Source: Acidobacteriota bacterium (GTDB lineage: Bacteria > Acidobacteriota > Vicinamibacteria > Vicinamibacterales > CAVVIG01). Taken from it: 64,000 nucleotides of DNA. The DNA lies in contig QHWB01000051.1 in the NCBI GenBank assembly GCA_003222395.1, positions 7,452-71,451 of the forward strand. Direction: 5' to 3'. Position 1 is the stretch's first letter, and every line of letters starts with the position of its first letter. Made by a program: the position numbers and the translations under genes. Shown here one piece after another: positions 21,804-30,864 of this stretch. The notes beneath the pieces were generated by a model. It ran no database searches, was not told the DNA's origin, and worked only from the letters and a program-made list of their open reading frames with translations.

Positions 21804-22061
21804 TTACCGCGGTTTGGTGGTGGGTTGCCGTTTCGTCGCCGACTTCTTCGCCGCTGAAGTGGTCGGCGTGCGCTTGGCCGCGGACCGCTTTTTCCTCGTC
21901 GGTTTCTTCGCCGCGGTCGACTTCGTCGCGGCGGTCGATTTCGTCGCCGTCGCGCGATGACGCGCCGGCTTGCGCGCCGCGGCTTCGCCGGCCGACCCGA
22001 GCGCGAACGTCGCGAACGTCGCGATCAGGGCGACGAGCAGCATCTTCATCGTTCTGCGCAT
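21804..22061 (-). CDS. small secreted, highly basic Lys/Thr/Ala repeat protein
   Basis: GGAGG 10 nt before ATG 22061. MRRTMKMLLVALIATFATFALGSAGEAAA signal peptide. 18-nt tandem coding repeat (ATKSTA ATKSTA AKKPTR). G/C-rich third positions. Confidence 0.55.
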   Translation of the reverse strand: MRRTMKMLLVALIATFATFALGSAGEAAARKPARHRATATKSTAATKSTAAKKPTRKKRSAAKRTPTTSAAKKSATKRQPTTKPR

Positions 22062-22086: not shown

Positions 22087-23082
22087 TTACAGCAGATAGG
22101 CGAGCGCAAAACCGATCTGCGCGACGAACATCATGCGGTACATGTGCGCCCACGAGACGTGGTTCTCTTCGACCGCCAGTTCCTCGGGCCTTCGCAGCAT
22201 CAGATAGCAAACATAAAGGCCGTATAAGGTCATGACGATGCCAAGAAGCTGGAGCAACCAGAAGCTGCCGGTGAGGATGCCGAGCCAGGCGCCAACCGGA
22301 ATCATCAGGAACGGGATGACGAACGACGGCGAAATCATCCAGGCCGCCCGGGAGACGCCGAACTGAATCGGCAGCGTGCGGCATCCGCCGCGGCGATCGC
22401 CTTCCATGTCGGCGAAGTCCTTCGTCGTCGTGGCGCCGAGCAGGAACAGCCCGAAGATGGCGCCGATGTACCAGGGCTCGACTCCGACGATCGTTTTCGC
22501 CGACGACCATCCCGCAACCTTCAGCAGGGTGCCGCGCGGAATCGCGATGGTGATGTTCGCCCAGATGCCGAGCCGCTTCGTGCGCAGCGGCGGCACCGAG
22601 TAGATGTACGTGCAGACAACGGCGATTGCGACGAGCCAGAAGCATTCGTGCCTCCCGGCGGACCAGGTCAGCGCAGGCCGATGCGGCTCGACGAGCCACG
22701 CCAGCACCAATGCGATCGCGTACGCCGCAATCGTGAAGCGCCACGCCTGCGCAAACGTCAGGCGTCCGCTCGGCAGCGGCCGCTTCGCCTTGTTCACGCG
22801 ATCGATCTCGAAGTCATAGATCTGATTCAGTGCGTTGTTGCCGGCGTTCAGCATCGCCGCCATGACGGACCCGATGATCGGAGACACGAGGAGCATTGGA
22901 GCCCACGGTTCCCGAGGCACGGCGCCGATGGCGGTCAGCGCCCCGGAGATGAAGCCGAGCGCCGGTGCGACCAGCGTAAAGGGGCGCGCGAGATCGATGT
23001 AGGCGCGGACGGGGTTCGAGGGGCCGGATTCCGGGCTCGGGGTCCGGAGTTGCGGGTTCTTGGTTCTGGGTTCGGGGTTCAT
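22087..23082 (-). CDS. UbiA-family prenyltransferase, ChlG/BchG/DGGGP-synthase-like
   Basis: NALNQIYDFEIDRVNKAKRPLPSGRL (NxxxDxxxD) and KDFADMEGDRRGGCRTLPIQFG (DxxxD) motifs, about 8 TM helices. ATGA overlap with upstream gene. Confidence 0.85.
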   Translation of the reverse strand: MNPEPRTKNPQLRTPSPESGPSNPVRAYIDLARPFTLVAPALGFISGALTAIGAVPREPWAPMLLVSPIIGSVMAAMLNAGNNALNQIYDFEIDRVNKAKRPLPSGRLTFAQAWRFTIAAYAIALVLAWLVEPHRPALTWSAGRHECFWLVAIAVVCTYIYSVPPLRTKRLGIWANITIAIPRGTLLKVAGWSSAKTIVGVEPWYIGAIFGLFLLGATTTKDFADMEGDRRGGCRTLPIQFGVSRAAWMISPSFVIPFLMIPVGAWLGILTGSFWLLQLLGIVMTLYGLYVCYLMLRRPEELAVEENHVSWAHMYRMMFVAQIGFALAYLL

Positions 23083-24428
23083 GCGATCGAGATGGCCACT
23101 GCCGCGGCGACGGCCGTGTTGATGAAATTCAGCATGTCGTTGTTCAGGATACCCGCAGGCTCCAGCGTCGCGCCGAGGACGCTCTCGACGAGCGCGCCGG
23201 CGGTCGCGGCGACAACGACCGCGACAATTGCGCCGGCCGGCGTCAACGCGAGCGCGGCGGCGAGCGCGGCGAGCGCGAGCGCTGCGACGATTCCGGCCGC
23301 CGTCCCTTCAAGCGACATCGCGCCGGGCGTGCCCGGCTTGACGCGACTGAAGGTCGTCACGAGAAACGTCGACCTTCCCCACGCTTTTCCGATCTCGCTC
23401 GCGACGGTATCGCTGCCGCCGGCGGTCAGGGCGGCCGTCAACGCGATCATCGAGGCGGACGCGTAGGGCGACGCGACCGCACATACTGCAGCAATCGCCG
23501 CAACGCCGCAGTTGGCGAACGCGTTGCCCGCGCCTCGACGACCACCGCGCTCCTCGGCGATGCCGAGCAACATCTTGCGTTTGAGTCCGAGGCGCGACGT
23601 CACCATGGCGACGAGGAAGGCTATGAACAGGAACAGCCATGCGGCCGCGCCACCGGCCGCGTAAATCACGATGCCGACGACGGCGCCGCCGACGGCGCCG
23701 GAGATCGACACAGTGCGCGCTCGATAGCCGAGCCACGCGACAACGGTGTTGAACGCGACAGCCCACGGGAGAGTCCTAAGCACTTCCGCCTTCGACGCGC
23801 TCCAAACCTCGAGCGACATCAGAGCGATCAGCCACAGGACAGCAGCGGCGGCGAACGGAACGGAGATGTTGTCGTCGAGCCGCACCGGAATCGTTTCGAC
23901 GAGTGCCGCGCAGATCGCCGCGACGATCGGAGCGACTATCGAGAACGTCACCGGCGGAGGCGGCGTGATCGACGATCGCGTCCACAGCGCCAGCGCGACG
24001 CCCGCGAGGCTTCCGAACGCGACGAACGCGACCGTTCCGGCAACCGTCTTGTCGGCGTTCCACGGGAGCGACCGGCCAAAAAACGCCGAGATGTTCTGTT
24101 TTGCTTTCTCTCCCACAATCGTCGCCATGCCGTCGCCCAGCGCGAGAACGCCCCACGCGGCCGCGACGATGTCGAGGCGTGACGGCAGGATGAGGATGAG
24201 CAAGAGCACCGACAGCGGATACAGAAGGATGCCGAGAGGAAACCCGCGCACGACGTCGGCGGGTCGATAGAGGCGGCGTCCGCCGATGCGCGGCAATGCC
24301 GCGGCGTTGAAGGCGAGCGCGAATGCGGCGCATGCGGCCGCCTGCCACCACGTCAATGCGCGCAGCAGCAGCGCGAACGCAGCCGATCCCATGTGGACCC
24401 ATTGCCGTGCGTGCTCCGAATGGCTCAT
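23079..24428 (-). CDS. fusion membrane protein: phytol/dolichol-kinase-like (VTE5/Sec59/CdsA superfamily) N-domain + DUF92 (TMEM19/VTE6 phytyl-phosphate-kinase family) C-domain
   Basis: ORF trimmed to ATG 24428 (MSHSEHARQW). N-half: LGDGMATIVGEKAK..LPWNADKTVAGTVAFVAFG. C-half: TSRLGLKRK..GGRRGAGNAFANCG..GGSDTVASEIGKAWG..VKPGTPGAMSLEGTAAG. Confidence 0.75.
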   Translation of the reverse strand: MSHSEHARQWVHMGSAAFALLLRALTWWQAAACAAFALAFNAAALPRIGGRRLYRPADVVRGFPLGILLYPLSVLLLILILPSRLDIVAAAWGVLALGDGMATIVGEKAKQNISAFFGRSLPWNADKTVAGTVAFVAFGSLAGVALALWTRSSITPPPPVTFSIVAPIVAAICAALVETIPVRLDDNISVPFAAAAVLWLIALMSLEVWSASKAEVLRTLPWAVAFNTVVAWLGYRARTVSISGAVGGAVVGIVIYAAGGAAAWLFLFIAFLVAMVTSRLGLKRKMLLGIAEERGGRRGAGNAFANCGVAAIAAVCAVASPYASASMIALTAALTAGGSDTVASEIGKAWGRSTFLVTTFSRVKPGTPGAMSLEGTAAGIVAALALAALAAALALTPAGAIVAVVVAATAGALVESVLGATLEPAGILNNDMLNFINTAVAAAVAISIA

Positions 24429-25390: not shown

Positions 25391-26344
25391 TCAGTTTTCG
25401 GTGCTGAGCTCTGCGTTCTGCGTTCTGAGACGCCAGTATTCGAGCACATCGTCGAGCGTCCGTTCGAGCGGAATCGTCGGCCGCCATCCGAGCTCGTTCT
25501 GAATCCGCCGCGGATCGCCGGCGACGAGCGGCGTGTCGTTCGGCCGGAACCGCGCTTGGTCGATGCGCACGCGCACGGGCACGCGGGCGCGCGCGACGAG
25601 GCGGTCGAGCAGCTCGCGGATCGACACGGCGTTGCCCGAACAAACGTTGTAGGGGCGTCCGGTTCGACCGCGATCGAGCACGTCGCGATAACCGCGGACG
25701 GTGTCGCGCACGTCGGTCAGCTCTCGCCGCGCGTCGAGATTGCCGACGACGATCTCGGGGCTCCGCTGCCCGCCTTCGATGTCGACGATCTGCCTCGCGA
25801 AATCGGATGCGACGAACGACGGATCCTGGCGCGGACCGATGTGATTGAACGCGCGCGCGATGCGGACGTCGATGCCGTCGCCGATCGCGCGCGTCCCGAG
25901 CATTTCCTGGGCGAGCTTGCTCAACCCGTACGGGCTTCCCGGCAGCAGCTCGTCGTCTTCGGCCAGCGGCCGGTCCGCCGGCTTGTAGATCATTGCCGAG
26001 CTCGGGATCAGCACCGGGATCCGCGCGCCGATCCGCCGCAGCGCTTCGAAGAGGAAGTGTGTCCCCCGCACGTTGATCGAGAACGTCGGTTCCGCGTCGC
26101 GCCACGCGCGGCCGACGTGCGCGGCGCCGGCGCAGTGATAAACGGCCAGCGGCGGCTCCGCGGCGATGGCGGTCGACACGGTCCGGCGGTCGGTGATGTC
26201 GACGGCCAGCCAACGGATCGACGTCTGCGAGGATGGCGGGACTCGATCCGGACGATGCCACCCGACGACATCTGCGCCGCCGCGCGACAAAAGATCGACG
26301 AGGTGACTGCCGGCGAAGCCGGCCGCACCGGTGACGAGGATCAA
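25391..26344 (-). CDS. NAD-dependent nucleotide-sugar epimerase/dehydratase/reductase (extended SDR)
   Basis: (M)ILVTGAAGFAGSHLV, YGLSK (YxxxK). TTG start overlapping the lptD stop (TTGA). Confidence 0.85.
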   Translation of the reverse strand: MILVTGAAGFAGSHLVDLLSRGGADVVGWHRPDRVPPSSQTSIRWLAVDITDRRTVSTAIAAEPPLAVYHCAGAAHVGRAWRDAEPTFSINVRGTHFLFEALRRIGARIPVLIPSSAMIYKPADRPLAEDDELLPGSPYGLSKLAQEMLGTRAIGDGIDVRIARAFNHIGPRQDPSFVASDFARQIVDIEGGQRSPEIVVGNLDARRELTDVRDTVRGYRDVLDRGRTGRPYNVCSGNAVSIRELLDRLVARARVPVRVRIDQARFRPNDTPLVAGDPRRIQNELGWRPTIPLERTLDDVLEYWRLRTQNAELSTEN

Positions 26345-28677
26345 CGCGGCACGCCGCTCAGCGCGCCGTTGAAGGGCGAGAAGTTTCCGAGGCCGGCCAG
26401 CGTGAACGAGAGGAAGAACCGGTGATCGGCGGCCGCGCCGATCGCCGATCCAGCGCCATAGTTATAGGTCTGGTATTGGAAGGCGAGGCCGCAGCACTGT
26501 GCGTTGTAGAAACCTGTGATCGTCTGGTTCAGCATGCTGCCACGCGTGATGTCATAGTTGAACTGATAGGTGCTGCCGAAGCGGTTGTCGCGCGTGTGTG
26601 CGTTGGTGCTCGCATTGATGAAGTGAGTGAGGTTGGAGCAGTCGGGCGTCAGTTGCGGAATGCATCCGTATTTGGTCCATCCGACGTTGGTCTGGAGCCG
26701 ACTGGTCCAGGCGTACGTCGTGCTCGCGGAAATAGTCCGCATCGAGTGATACCGGTTATCGAACTCGGCAGCCACTGTCGCGTTGACGTCGTTGGTCGGC
26801 GTAGCGCGCACGCTGAGCTTCACCGGCGAGAAATGGCTTGCCGTACCGCCGCCGAGCTGCGCCGTCTGGTACTGCAGGTCGAACAACGCCTGCAACTGGT
26901 TCGTGTAATAGGTCTGCGTCAACTCGACGTCGACGATCTCGCGTGCCTGCGCCGGCTGACCGGGCGTGATCCGGCGCTTCGCGTAGAAACGGTTCGCCAC
27001 ACCGTAGGCGAGATTCGTACCGCCGGTCACGTTGTCGATGCCGTCGGTCACGAGGATTTGCCTGAAGTTGTCGACCGACGTCGTCTCCTGGACGGTCAAG
27101 AACGGCTCGATGGTGTGCTTGAACTTCTCTGCGTACGAGCTCTGCGCCGTGTCCCAGATCCGGTTGAACACCGGTCCGACGATCTGCGACTGCACTGAAA
27201 AGTACTGACGGTTCAGCGAAGCATCGGCGATGTTGGTCGCGGAACAGGACGTGCTCGAATCGTTCGTGGAAGGGCAGCTCCGCGTGTAGAACGTGTCGCG
27301 CCAGCTGACGGTCGAGTTGACGGTGAACCACTGCCACTTCTTGAACGGATACCGAATGACCGGCCAGATGTCGACGCGGTTAAGGCCGGCGTCGAGGTCG
27401 TGGGGGATGTTGTCGGGGTCGATCGACTTCGATTCACGCAGCAGGTTCGCGTACTCGCTCGTCAACCCGAAATAGACGGCCGATCCGAACAGCGGCCGCT
27501 CGCTGCGGGAGATGTTGACGCGCGGACCGGTGCCCGAAACGACCGAACTCGTCAGATCGTAGAACGACTCCTGCCGATCGATCGTGCCGTTCATCGAGTA
27601 GCCGGCCCACGCCCCGACGAAGTTGGCGCCGAACAACCGCACGTTGCGCGACGACGAGTAGATATCGGTGTTGTAGGTCTGCGACGATTCGATACTCGAA
27701 AAATAGTTCACGTTCGCGCGCGCGCGGATGTTGCCCGGCAGCACCTGGTTCGCGCCGCCGCGAAGCTCGTAGCTGCGGCTGGCCGGCAGCGGCGCTGTCG
27801 TCCCATCGGACCGCACGTACGCGCTCTCGTGCTGGTCGAGGAAGTGCAAGTTGAGGGTGCCGTCGTTGCCGCCGCCGTAGTTGTACCGGTACTCGCTGCC
27901 GATACCCTGTCCGGTCTTCGAGTACCAGTCGTGCAGGATCGTCGCGTCCTGGCTGCGGTTGATCGCCCAGAAGAAGGCGTCGTGAATCGAGTGGCCGAAG
28001 ATGGACGACGTCCCGTACGTCGGAAGCAGAAAGCCTGTCGCGCGATCGCCTTCTTTCGTCGGGTAAATCAGAACCGGCACGTACAAGAGCGGAACGCCCT
28101 TGACGGTGAAGACCGCCTGCTTCAGGAACGTGTAGTGATCGACGTTGAGGATGACGGTGTCGGCGTGCAGATCCCAGCGCGGGGTCGGCTGCACGCACGT
28201 CGTGAAGCCGCCGTTCGTGATCTTGTACTTCTTCGGGCCGATCTTCTCGACCGAGTCGCCGAAGAAGTAGACGACGGTCTCCTGTGCGCCCGTCGGCGGC
28301 AGCGCCACGGCGCCGGGCCGCCCCTGCTGCCGCTGCGGCTGCACGTTCGCGATGCCGCTCGCGTTCGAAAAACTGCCGAGACGCGTCTTGGTGTTGATTT
28401 CGGCGCGCTCCGCCGAGATCCGGTTGTTGCCCTGCGCGAAGGTCACGTTGCCGACGAGCACCAGCTTGTCTTCATCCGAGTAGAACCACGCTTCGTCGGC
28501 GAAGATCGACGTCTCTTTGCTCTGGTATTCGAAGCTGCCGATGAAATGGTGGTTTTTCTGATTGTTCGTGACCTCGTGCCGGTCGCTCGACATCGTGTCC
28601 TGCGCCGTCGGTTGCTGCGCGACGACAGGCCGCGCGATGAGGAGCAGCAGCACGAAGCAGCCGGCGAACCGAGGCAT
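26341..28677 (-). CDS. lptD: LPS-assembly outer-membrane protein LptD
   Basis: ORF trimmed to ATG 28677 (MPRFAGCFVLLLLIARPVVAQQ signal). OstA-like N-domain (FADEAWFYSDEDKLVLVGNVTFAQGNNRISAERAEIN), large C-terminal barrel. Confidence 0.85.
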   Translation of the reverse strand: MPRFAGCFVLLLLIARPVVAQQPTAQDTMSSDRHEVTNNQKNHHFIGSFEYQSKETSIFADEAWFYSDEDKLVLVGNVTFAQGNNRISAERAEINTKTRLGSFSNASGIANVQPQRQQGRPGAVALPPTGAQETVVYFFGDSVEKIGPKKYKITNGGFTTCVQPTPRWDLHADTVILNVDHYTFLKQAVFTVKGVPLLYVPVLIYPTKEGDRATGFLLPTYGTSSIFGHSIHDAFFWAINRSQDATILHDWYSKTGQGIGSEYRYNYGGGNDGTLNLHFLDQHESAYVRSDGTTAPLPASRSYELRGGANQVLPGNIRARANVNYFSSIESSQTYNTDIYSSSRNVRLFGANFVGAWAGYSMNGTIDRQESFYDLTSSVVSGTGPRVNISRSERPLFGSAVYFGLTSEYANLLRESKSIDPDNIPHDLDAGLNRVDIWPVIRYPFKKWQWFTVNSTVSWRDTFYTRSCPSTNDSSTSCSATNIADASLNRQYFSVQSQIVGPVFNRIWDTAQSSYAEKFKHTIEPFLTVQETTSVDNFRQILVTDGIDNVTGGTNLAYGVANRFYAKRRITPGQPAQAREIVDVELTQTYYTNQLQALFDLQYQTAQLGGGTASHFSPVKLSVRATPTNDVNATVAAEFDNRYHSMRTISASTTYAWTSRLQTNVGWTKYGCIPQLTPDCSNLTHFINASTNAHTRDNRFGSTYQFNYDITRGSMLNQTITGFYNAQCCGLAFQYQTYNYGAGSAIGAAADHRFFLSFTLAGLGNFSPFNGALSGVPR

Positions 28678-28678
28678 A

Positions 28679-29905
28679 TCAGTAAGAGTGTAATCCCAGC
28701 TGTCGCATGACGTCGCCGAGCAGAAAGATCGATCCGGCGACGACGATTCGCGGCGACATCCTCCATACGGCCGCGAGCGCATCCGTTGAGGACGGTTCGA
28801 TCGCGATCGGCAGCGCGGGCGCGATCCTTCGAGCGGAGTCGGCGAGCATGCCTGGATCTGCCGAACGCGGGTTCGACGCGCGCGTCATCACCGCTGCGCC
28901 GATCGCGGGCAGCAGGATTCGAAACATGCCATCAATGTCTTTGTCGCGCATCGCGGCGAACACGAGCGGGCGTCGCTGCGATTCCGCCGTCAGGTAGGTT
29001 GCGAGCGCCGCGGCGCCGGCCGGATTGTGGGCCGCATCGAGCAGGAGCTCGCGTCCGTCGGGCAGCCGCCTTTGGTCGAGCCGTCCCGGCCACTCGGGGT
29101 CCGCGAGGCCGCGCGCGACGGCATCGGACGGCACGCCGACGCCTCGCGCGGTGAGCTGCTCCAGCACGCGGACGGCGACGCCGGCGTTGGCGCGCTGATG
29201 ATCGCCGTACAGTCCGAGAGTGAACGGCGCCGCATCGGCCGGCGTCGCGCGGATCAGCGCTGCGCCGCGTTCGTTCGCGACGCGCGCGATGACGCCGAGG
29301 CTCTCGGGGTCGACCGGCCCGACGACGACCGGCACGCCTGCCTTGATGATGCCCGCCTTTTCGAAAGCGATCTCGGCGAGCGTCGATCCGAGATACAGCT
29401 GATGGTCCAAGGCGATAGACGTGATAGCCGTGACGAACGGCGAGACGATGTTCGTGGCGTCGAGTCGGCCCCCCAGACCGACTTCGAGCACCGCGATCTC
29501 TACTTCTGCGCGCCGAAACAATTCGAACGCGGCGGCGGTCGTCACTTCGAAGAACGTCGGCTGCACGCCGAGGGTGCCGTCGAATCGCAACGACTCGACG
29601 ACGTCGCGGACCGTGGCCACGGCGCACACGAGCGTGTCGTGTGCGACCGGGCGTCCGCCGATGACGAAGCGTTCGGATAAGTCGGTCAGGTGCGGCGACG
29701 TGTAGCGCGCGGTTCGGTGGCCGGCGGCTCGGAGCGCGGCATCCACCATGGCCGTGACCGACCCTTTGCCGTTCGTCCCGGCCACGTGCACGGACTTGAA
29801 CGTTCGATCCGGTCGGCCGAGGCGCTCGACGATTGCGGTGATGTTCTCGAGGCCGAACTTGATCCCGAAATGCTCGAGACTGAACAGGTAGCTGAGAGGA
29901 TCCAA
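28679..29905 (-). CDS. folC: bifunctional folylpolyglutamate synthase/dihydrofolate synthase
   Basis: HVAGTNGKGSV P-loop, Mur-ligase fold. Classical accD-folC synteny. Confidence 0.92.
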   Translation of the reverse strand: MDPLSYLFSLEHFGIKFGLENITAIVERLGRPDRTFKSVHVAGTNGKGSVTAMVDAALRAAGHRTARYTSPHLTDLSERFVIGGRPVAHDTLVCAVATVRDVVESLRFDGTLGVQPTFFEVTTAAAFELFRRAEVEIAVLEVGLGGRLDATNIVSPFVTAITSIALDHQLYLGSTLAEIAFEKAGIIKAGVPVVVGPVDPESLGVIARVANERGAALIRATPADAAPFTLGLYGDHQRANAGVAVRVLEQLTARGVGVPSDAVARGLADPEWPGRLDQRRLPDGRELLLDAAHNPAGAAALATYLTAESQRRPLVFAAMRDKDIDGMFRILLPAIGAAVMTRASNPRSADPGMLADSARRIAPALPIAIEPSSTDALAAVWRMSPRIVVAGSIFLLGDVMRQLGLHSY

Positions 29906-29937: not shown

Positions 29938-30864
29938 TCATGCCTGAGATGCGGGCTCGGTGACGACGATCGGTACGGCAGGTTCGACGCCCGCCATCGC
30001 CGCCGCCGCGGCCGGACGCGCCGTTCCCATGAACCGCAGCGCGTTCGCGACGATGGCCTTCATCTCGCGGCGATCGACGACGAGATCGACCATTCCCTTT
30101 TCCATCAGGAACTCGCTGCGCTGAAATCCCTCGGGCAGCGTCTGCCGGATTGTCTGCTCGATGACGCGGGGACCCGCAAACCCGATGAGCGCCTTCGGCT
30201 CCGCGATGTTCAGGTCGCCCAGCATCGCGAAGCTCGCCGTCACGCCGCCGGTCGTCGGATCGGTCAGGATCGAGATGTACGGCAGCCGCGCGCGGTCGAG
30301 CCGCGCGAGCGCTCCGCAGATCTTCGCCATCTGCATGAGCGACAGCGCGCCTTCCATCATCCGCGCGCCGCCCGAGCACGAGACGATGATGACCGGCTGC
30401 CGCAGATCGATCGCGCGCTCGATGGCGCGCGTGATCTTCTCTCCGACGACGACGCCCATGCTGCCGCCGATGAACCCGTACTCCATCGAAGCGACGATCG
30501 CCGGCTGGCCGTCGATCGCGCCGGACGCGACGATAATCGCGTCCTTGAGGCCGGTCGATTCGATGCTCGCCTTCAGGCGCGCTTTGTACGGTTTGGTGTC
30601 GGTGAACTTCAGCGGGTCGGTCGACACGAGATCCTTGTCGTGCTCCACCCATTCGCCGTCCAACAGCATGCGCAGCCGTTCGGTCGCATTGATGCGGAAG
30701 TGGTGCGCGCACTTCGGGCACACGTTCAGGTTCGTCGTCAGATCCTTGTTGTAGATGATCTGGGCGCAGTCGGGACACTTGACCCAGAGGCCCTCGGGGA
30801 CCCGGCTCGCCTTTTCCCCGGCCGGCGCGGCCATCGGCTTGCGGGTCTTCTTGAACCACGGCAT
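29938..30864 (-). CDS. accD: acetyl-CoA carboxylase carboxyltransferase beta subunit
   Basis: N-terminal zinc ribbon CPDC..CPKC, GGSMG, carboxyltransferase domain. Confidence 0.95.
   Translation of the reverse strand: MPWFKKTRKPMAAPAGEKASRVPEGLWVKCPDCAQIIYNKDLTTNLNVCPKCAHHFRINATERLRMLLDGEWVEHDKDLVSTDPLKFTDTKPYKARLKASIESTGLKDAIIVASGAIDGQPAIVASMEYGFIGGSMGVVVGEKITRAIERAIDLRQPVIIVSCSGGARMMEGALSLMQMAKICGALARLDRARLPYISILTDPTTGGVTASFAMLGDLNIAEPKALIGFAGPRVIEQTIRQTLPEGFQRSEFLMEKGMVDLVVDRREMKAIVANALRFMGTARPAAAAAMAGVEPAVPIVVTEPASQA

Follow-up and report, generated by a model that had tools for sequence, protein, structure and literature searches.

VTE5, which is a phytol kinase, and VTE6, a kinase of phytyl phosphate, are both characterized enzymes (PMC5694494, PMC9782597), and VTE6, known from plants and cyanobacteria, is the sole characterized member of the DUF92 family (PMC5694494, PMC9782597). 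All characterized prenol kinases come from photosynthetic organisms (plants and cyanobacteria) or from Plasmodium, and those of animals and of most bacteria are still missing (reviewed in PMC13022625 and PMC9782597). DUF92 (arCOG02245, COG1836) was related to pfam01148 by HHpred (97.6%) by Makarova, Galperin, and Koonin in 2015, and several archaeal DUF92 proteins, such as Mbar_A3310 of Methanosarcina barkeri, have an N-terminal Sec59-like domain (COG0170, 99.85% by HHpred) (PMC5898192). Catalytic aspartates are kept in both domains of these archaeal fusions, which were predicted to act in isoprenoid metabolism (PMC5898192). This work describes a bacterial protein of comparable design, encoded next to a UbiA-family prenyltransferase in a 64,000-nucleotide stretch (referred to here as the window) of contig QHWB01000051.1 from an Acidobacteriota bacterium (assembly GCA_003222395.1; Vicinamibacterales).

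We propose that this fusion, whose two domains are both diverged members of the CdsA/CTP-transferase superfamily, is a bifunctional membrane prenol and prenyl-phosphate kinase that feeds the coupled UbiA O-prenyltransferase; this is the reading we favor, and we hold it to be somewhat probable. The N-terminal domain (N-domain; Sec59/VTE5/FOLK-like) would phosphorylate a free allylic isoprenoid alcohol, probably of C15 to C20 (farnesol, geranylgeraniol, or phytol), to give a prenyl monophosphate. The C-terminal domain (C-domain; DUF92/VTE6-like) would put on the second phosphate, after which the translationally coupled UbiA enzyme (ChlG/DGGGPS-like, from a clade specific to acidobacteria) would move the prenyl chain from the diphosphate to an acceptor. 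An HpnA-like short-chain dehydrogenase/reductase (SDR) encoded directly upstream may make or interconvert the alcohol (e.g., prenal to prenol) or may act on the acceptor. We infer both kinase activities, the chain length, the product, and the origin of the alcohol, be it salvage or synthesis in the cell, and by analogy CTP would serve as the nucleotide donor. The proposal builds on the identity of the domains, the coupling of the genes, the conserved catalytic motifs, and a phylum-wide co-occurrence of the fusion with this UbiA clade, each of which is documented below.

The functional link between the fusion and UbiA is strongly supported by a survey of 301 genomes drawn evenly from the phylum, which were searched with a profile of the fusion and with the sequences of UbiA and the HpnA-like SDR. 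Both kinase domains were present in 104 genomes, almost always in one reading frame; 21 genomes had DUF92 only and 5 had the N-domain only. A UbiA orthologue (43 to 76% identity) was found in 94 of the 104 genomes with both kinase domains versus 4 of the 197 others (Fisher P = 1e-60), and 2 of those 4 are probably partial detections of the fusion. The functional coupling of the two proteins, which an earlier note on this DNA had claimed, is thus borne out by their phyletic distribution. Fusion and UbiA lie ≤500 bp apart in 62 genomes (on the same strand in 58) and on different contigs in 27, near-complete assemblies among them; co-occurrence without linkage in many families is good evidence for a shared function. 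Adjacency within the Vicinamibacterales (77 of 80 loci) proves little on its own, since the whole region is syntenic there. Of 24 genomes sampled from the order to which the window belongs, 18 lack both fusion and UbiA, and the module is accessory, being widespread but patchy in Acidobacteriota. In the window itself, both open reading frames (ORFs) lie on the minus strand where the earlier note had placed them, with all the motifs it quoted present in their translations, and the claimed ATGA coupling of fusion and UbiA was read directly from the sequence, as was a second such overlap at the junction of SDR and fusion.

The C-terminal half was claimed to be DUF92/VTE6-like within a two-domain, 449-amino-acid (449-aa) protein, and residues 228 to 442 indeed match DUF92 (PF01940) with an E value of 5.1e-42 and 144.4 bits, against a cutoff of 27.5. 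The NCBIfam model TIGR00297 gives 159.9 bits, under its trusted cutoff of 205.85, and the C-domain is therefore a diverged DUF92 member. Its motifs are GRRGAGNAFANCG, GGSDTVASEIG, and GTPGAMSLEGTAAG, with D340, E345, and D431 invariant in family alignments, and it is the only DUF92 protein in its own genome. The fused architecture is conserved in 336 species genomes, also across the phylum, and is more than chance. AlphaFold models the full-length fusion as all-helical (predicted local distance difference test [pLDDT], 83.8; predicted template modeling score [pTM], 0.82). When the N-domain and C-domain were compared with hhalign, only DG.AT.VG and DTVASEIG were aligned (probability, 0.4%); both alignments are shallow, which is probably why the published internal homology between the two domains was not reproduced.

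Evidence for the N-domain is indirect but consistent, and it places the domain in the CdsA/Sec59/VTE5 superfamily. The motif GDGMATIVG...LPWNADKTVAGTVAF occupies fusion residues 98 to 137, and D99, K127, G131, D185, D186, and N187 are invariant in 34 N-domain sequences. A PF01148 search of the whole genome found CdsA alone, on another contig, whereas three relatives of the fusion pass this model (28 to 38 bits; cutoff, 24). Two of these (P0331 and P0333) are 56 to 57% identical to the N-domain and match profile positions 123 to 198, so that the CdsA-specific end is not covered; the match in the third (P0369) spans positions 78 to 216. Homologues of the N-domain are labeled as dolichol kinase, phytol kinase, or COG0170 in JGI and Tara data. 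When 1.84 billion representatives were searched with a profile of the 34 N-domains, 5,303 proteins matched at E ≤ 1e-3; of the best 150 matches, about half are fusions of ~450 aa, and the remainder are proteins of 190 to 250 aa or fragments.

Compared by hhalign with the genome's own CdsA, the family profile aligns over the motif D..A...G...G / K(T/S)x(E/A)G with an E value of 9e-4, pairing LAfGDG.Atl.G...LPWN..KS.aG of the N-domain family with SDTAQFYTGRAFG...SPKKTIEG of CdsA. The N-domain has VETIPVRLDDNISVP, without PGHGG..DR.D, and an invariant ETIPVRLDDNISVP where CdsA runs on with IPGHGGVLDRID. The DDN end (E..P...DDN) is one that we take to be a mark of kinases such as VTE5 and Sec59. 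The structure model of the N-domain has a pLDDT of 92.6 and, like the full-length model, is confident. An assignment to CdsA proper was rejected, as the genome has a separate, true CdsA and the signature end PGHGG..DR.D is missing. Of the earlier description of this half as a phytol/dolichol-kinase domain, membership in the superfamily and distinctness from CdsA stood, but the Pfam model proposed for the purpose does not recognize the N-domain of the window directly.

The UbiA protein matches PF01040 at 127 bits (cutoff, 34.2) and has the two motifs given for it earlier, YDFEIDRVNKAKRPLPSG and KDFADMEGDRRGGCRTLP. Invariant positions number 74 in 24 orthologues (48 to 100% identity) and include N86/D90/D94 and D222/D225/D229; the enzyme is under strong constraint and probably active. 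As the earlier note had proposed, its closest relatives of known structure are a DGGGPS from M. jannaschii (PDB entry 6m31; 3.7e-17, 66 bits) and a chlorophyll a synthase (9sau; 1.2e-15, 61 bits), with ApUbiA and AfUbiA far behind. Among NCBIfam models the ranking is led by PRK12884, labeled "prenyltransferase" (128 bits), followed by ChlG (PRK07566; 121 bits, cutoff 313), BchG/ChlG (TIGR01476; 100 bits, cutoff 212), HPT (93 bits, cutoff 226), and two DGGGPS models (89 and 80 bits, cutoffs 296 and 353); the cutoffs of the ranked families range from 212 to 353 bits. Heme O synthase follows at 42 bits (cutoff, 210) and quinone enzymes at ≤39. The earlier note had named clustering with a well-characterized quinone or heme O enzyme as one outcome that would speak against it; by these scores the protein is neither. 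In a small tree, chlorophyll synthases (two from a phototrophic acidobacterium, described below, plus 9sau) form a separate clade (support, 99/99) that does not include the UbiA of the window, and the UbiA proteins of acidobacteria fall into a shallow group apart, the sampling of references being too thin to name a sister clade.

Three other UbiA paralogues are present in the genome: a CtaB-like protein beside ctaA, an MqnP-like protein beside ubiE, and one with an NDxxD-type first motif that looks decaprenyl-phosphate phosphoribosyltransferase-like. The usual UbiA functions are thus already covered. This 99% complete genome gave no match to PcrB/GGGPS (PF01884) and no chlorophyll synthase above the NCBIfam cutoff, so neither of the two nearest known functions fits the UbiA protein, and the context is non-phototrophic, as claimed. 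Accordingly, three assignments were rejected: chlorophyll synthase (i.e., phototrophy), because the scores fall under the cutoff while true synthases of a phototrophic acidobacterium reach 230 to 327 bits; classical DGGGPS, because the GGGPS partner is absent and the scores are again too low; and heme O or quinone prenyltransferase, because of the low scores and the separate CtaB-like and MqnP-like paralogues.

A natural comparison for a salvage function is offered by a phototroph that has both the fusion and true chlorophyll synthases. Two of the surveyed genomes (G162 and G283; two replicons, 2.66 + 1.00 Mb) each hold three genes of the chlorophyll-synthase family above the NCBIfam cutoff, which identifies them as phototrophs. 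Their fusion is full length (454 aa; DUF92 E value, 1e-47) and lies among unrelated genes (L113:7089-8453, on G162:C1); the acidobacterial UbiA orthologue is absent. In phototrophs, phytyl or farnesyl diphosphate from salvage is known to be used by exactly these synthases. This case fits a fusion that feeds prenyl diphosphate to ChlG-type transferases; in non-phototrophs, the clade-specific UbiA would fill the place of the chlorophyll synthases.

The HpnA-like SDR is probably part of the module. Against TIGR03466 (HpnA) the protein scores 186 bits (cutoff, 367), with OleD and SdmB at ~120 bits, and it also matches the NAD_binding_4 and thioester-reductase profiles, which describe alcohol-forming reductases. 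With orthologues defined at E ≤ 1e-40, 47 of the 104 fusion-bearing genomes have the SDR directly upstream of the fusion and on its strand, and it is kept there in many genomes where UbiA sits on another contig (e.g., in G059, G157, G014, and G029), which makes it probably a third member. At the same threshold it is absent next to the fusion in more than half of the fusion genomes, and 37 of the 80 Vicinamibacterales loci lack it. To call fusion and UbiA a self-contained cassette, as was done earlier, is therefore too strong, given that the SDR is as tightly linked as UbiA and that ~10% of fusion genomes lack UbiA.

As for possible substrates, the genome contains two tandem pairs of SQS_PSY genes (C101:3839-5418 and C25:80015-81639), each beside a flavoprotein-like N terminus, which look like hpnCDE or crt and indicate synthesis of squalene- or phytoene-type compounds, and at least three proteins of the geranylgeranyl-reductase family. 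This makes isoprenoid alcohols of C15 to C20, perhaps saturated in part, plausible as substrates. A broader proposal, which we put forward as tentative and on balance doubtful, is that many non-phototrophic Acidobacteriota use the reductase, the bifunctional kinase, and the O-prenyltransferase to produce a prenylated membrane lipid or cofactor not described before, for example, a polar acceptor that carries an isoprenoid in ether or ester linkage.

Several observations weigh against the bifunctional-kinase reading. Even at E ≤ 10, residues 1 to 216 gave no hit to the Pfam or NCBIfam models. Foldseek searches of the PDB gave nothing significant with either the N-domain model (highest probability, 0.28, for CarS 5guf; E value, 0.82) or the full-length model (best E value, 0.3), and profile searches of PDB sequences found no match with the N-domain or with the full-length alignment. 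The superfamily also includes a CTP-dependent diacylglycerol kinase and dolichol kinase, and the alcohol therefore need not be a short prenol. UbiA is missing from 10 of the 104 fusion-bearing genomes, so the fusion does not strictly need it; among the 10, two relatives within the Vicinamibacterales keep the fusion and have cleanly lost UbiA from both locus and genome. Beside 16 UbiA genes that are not linked to the fusion lie housekeeping genes, which give no clue to the acceptor (RNR, RuvB, GrpE, a PLD-type cardiolipin-synthase-like gene, and DUF2157).

Stand-alone homologues of the N-domain add to these points. One of 191 aa, labeled COG0170, lies on marine metagenome contigs within an operon for heptose and the core of lipopolysaccharide (LPS) (L091:3899-4474 and L092:2642-3217), in the order SDR epimerase, PfkB kinase, HAD phosphatase, N-domain homologue, CTP_transf_like gene, and GT9 heptosyltransferase; its position is a hint that LPS assembly may include an undescribed step by a lipid kinase. 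Another, of 219 aa and 40% identity (L089:6001-6660), has an ABC-2 permease on one side and an AurF-like di-iron oxygenase on the other and is preceded by three ketoacyl-synthase genes and an amine-oxidase-type flavoprotein in what resembles a polyketide or lipid context. A third, of 201 aa and from another genome, follows lptD-SDR-SDR together with a 203-aa protein lacking a Pfam match (L090:2169-3451); no DUF92 or UbiA gene is nearby, and grpE, htpX, hsp20, and clpB come next, as they do in the window. From these contexts, the N-domain family as a whole is not tied to UbiA.

The explanation nearest to our own differs in where the alcohol comes from: the module would serve dedicated biosynthesis instead of salvage, with the SDR reducing an aldehyde, ketone, or thioester of isoprenoid type that the cell itself makes, and the fused kinases activating the resulting alcohol, a pathway intermediate, for UbiA. 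This we judge unlikely, even though the start/stop overlap of SDR and fusion, the persistence of the SDR beside the fusion when UbiA is elsewhere, and the matches to alcohol-forming reductases all speak for it. The many fusion loci that have no adjacent SDR, together with the solitary fusion of the phototroph, speak against it, and the SDR could equally work on the acceptor. Quite unlikely, in our estimate, is a role in recycling carrier lipids, in which the N-domain would be a polyprenol kinase of the undecaprenol/dolichol type for LPS or polysaccharide assembly and UbiA would either use polyprenyl phosphate as an acceptor or be unrelated. Here, one overlapping row joins the fusion to lptD and two SDRs of the sugar-nucleotide type, dolichol kinases are the closest labeled relatives, and two of the stand-alone homologues occur in the LPS-core operon and after lptD-SDR-SDR. 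For the N-domain by itself, a carrier-lipid or other lipid-alcohol kinase role is indeed possible. For the fused gene, however, a second, VTE6-like kinase domain would be pointless on a monophosphate carrier, and this domain and the tight phyletic link to a ChlG/DGGGPS-like UbiA of a type that uses diphosphate donors argue against such a role. In addition, the genome has the separate paralogue with the NDxxD-type first motif, synteny with lptD is limited to related lineages, and unlinked copies lie amid housekeeping genes.

We consider it highly improbable that the locus belongs to an archaeal-style ether-lipid branch, with UbiA acting like DGGGPS on an acceptor based on glycerol phosphate and one domain of the fusion being a CarS-like cytidylyltransferase. 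That the M. jannaschii enzyme is the best solved relative of UbiA agrees with this scheme, as does the placement of both fusion domains in the CdsA/CarS superfamily (PMC5898192 and the hhalign match to CdsA); CarS 5guf is also the highest-probability, though not significant, structural match of the N-domain. Yet the genome has no PcrB/GGGPS homologue, the DGGGPS models are matched far below their cutoffs, the only characterized DUF92 enzyme is a kinase, and homologues of the N-domain are labeled COG0170, not CarS or CdsA.

Features of the gene row in the window, in order of transcription (positions are those of the window)
Feature	Position	Strand	Basis or remark
accD	29938-30864	-	First gene of the row
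folC	28679-29905	-	Between accD and lptD
lptD	26341-28782	-	Pfam LptD_2 and LptD_N matches; context only; synteny kept in 70 of 80 Vicinamibacterales loci
GDP-mannose-dehydratase-family SDR, 317 aa	25391-26344	-	PF16363, E value 2.7e-53; neighbor in 76 of the 80 loci from Vicinamibacterales
HpnA/OleD/SdmB-like extended SDR (lipid-type reductase), 311 aa	24425-25360	-	NCBIfam scores below cutoff
ATGA overlap, SDR stop and fusion start	24425-24428	-	Read from the sequence
Fused membrane protein, Sec59/VTE5-like plus DUF92/VTE6-like, 449 aa	23079-24428	-	Translation
N-domain, residues 1-216, CTP_transf_1-superfamily, polyprenol-kinase-like	23781-24428	-	Profile matches and labels of homologues; hhalign
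C-domain, residues 228-442, DUF92/COG1836/VTE6-like	23103-23747	-	PF01940
ATGA overlap, fusion stop and UbiA start	23079-23082	-	Read from the sequence
UbiA-family prenyltransferase, 331 aa, acidobacterial clade	22087-23082	-	PF01040, E value 8e-37

The window has a G+C content of ~65% and comes from an assembly of 7.7 Mb; its nearest relatives, judged by proteins and by locus, are in the Vicinamibacterales. The tabulated genes belong to an unbroken minus-strand row that runs from accD through folC, lptD, the two SDR genes, the fusion, and UbiA to a mini-protein and a radical-SAM gene. Whether the GDP-mannose-dehydratase-family SDR is part of the module is uncertain. The mini-protein is an 85-aa ORF (21804-22061, minus strand) directly after UbiA; it is basic, with a signal-peptide-like start and a tail made up almost entirely of K, R, T, A, S, and P, and it has no Pfam match. 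Scans for promoters and terminators across the gene row gave results at chance level. In one acidobacterial family, an unlinked UbiA gene sits between grpE-htpX-hsp20-clpB and a PLD-type cardiolipin-synthase-like gene (L101:4320-5771 and L102:8181-10643).

If the broader proposal is correct, the fused kinase would be the first enzyme known from bacteria that converts a free prenol completely to its diphosphate. One polypeptide that performs both phosphorylations would also be a compact means of supplying prenols to engineered isoprenoid pathways. Acidobacteriota are among the most abundant soil phyla, and the strict pairing of the fusion with an uncharacterized UbiA clade points to a prenylated compound, as yet undescribed, in this dominant group.

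In relation to described systems, the fusion combines the same two families as VTE5 and VTE6 in the same order, which would correspond to the route from prenol through prenyl phosphate to prenyl diphosphate. VTE5 and VTE6 are separate enzymes, whereas here the two domains form one polypeptide in a non-phototrophic bacterium, where the pathway is predicted from genes. The product of the VTE5/VTE6 route goes to UbiA-family transferases (chlorophyll synthase, HPT, and MenA), but the acidobacterial partner is none of ChlG, HPT, or MenA. Its two best solved relatives, DGGGPS 6m31 and chlorophyll a synthase 9sau, share with it the NxxxDxxxD, DxxDxxxD, and YSxPPxRxK regions, and both O-prenylate with C20 diphosphates; the acidobacterial protein, however, reaches only 66 and 61 bits against them, in a genome without a GGGPS partner and without phototrophy. 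The novelty that the earlier note implied for the fusion does not hold, as a fusion of Sec59-like and DUF92 domains was already published for archaea in 2015 (PMC5898192). The archaeal fusion of a Sec59-like domain with arCOG02245 has the same architecture as the acidobacterial one, a likeness drawn from its description only. Its genes are linked to uppS, in contrast to UbiA and the SDR here, and unlike the archaeal proteins the bacterial fusions make up a phylum-wide group of their own. Seaver in 2014 and vom Dorp in 2015, who between them predicted and proved VTE6, reportedly noted that in prokaryotes it is clustered with or fused to phytol kinase. Judged by its sequences, the acidobacterial module is a variant of the logic that leads from VTE5 and VTE6 to UbiA, with a domain architecture that was itself already known.

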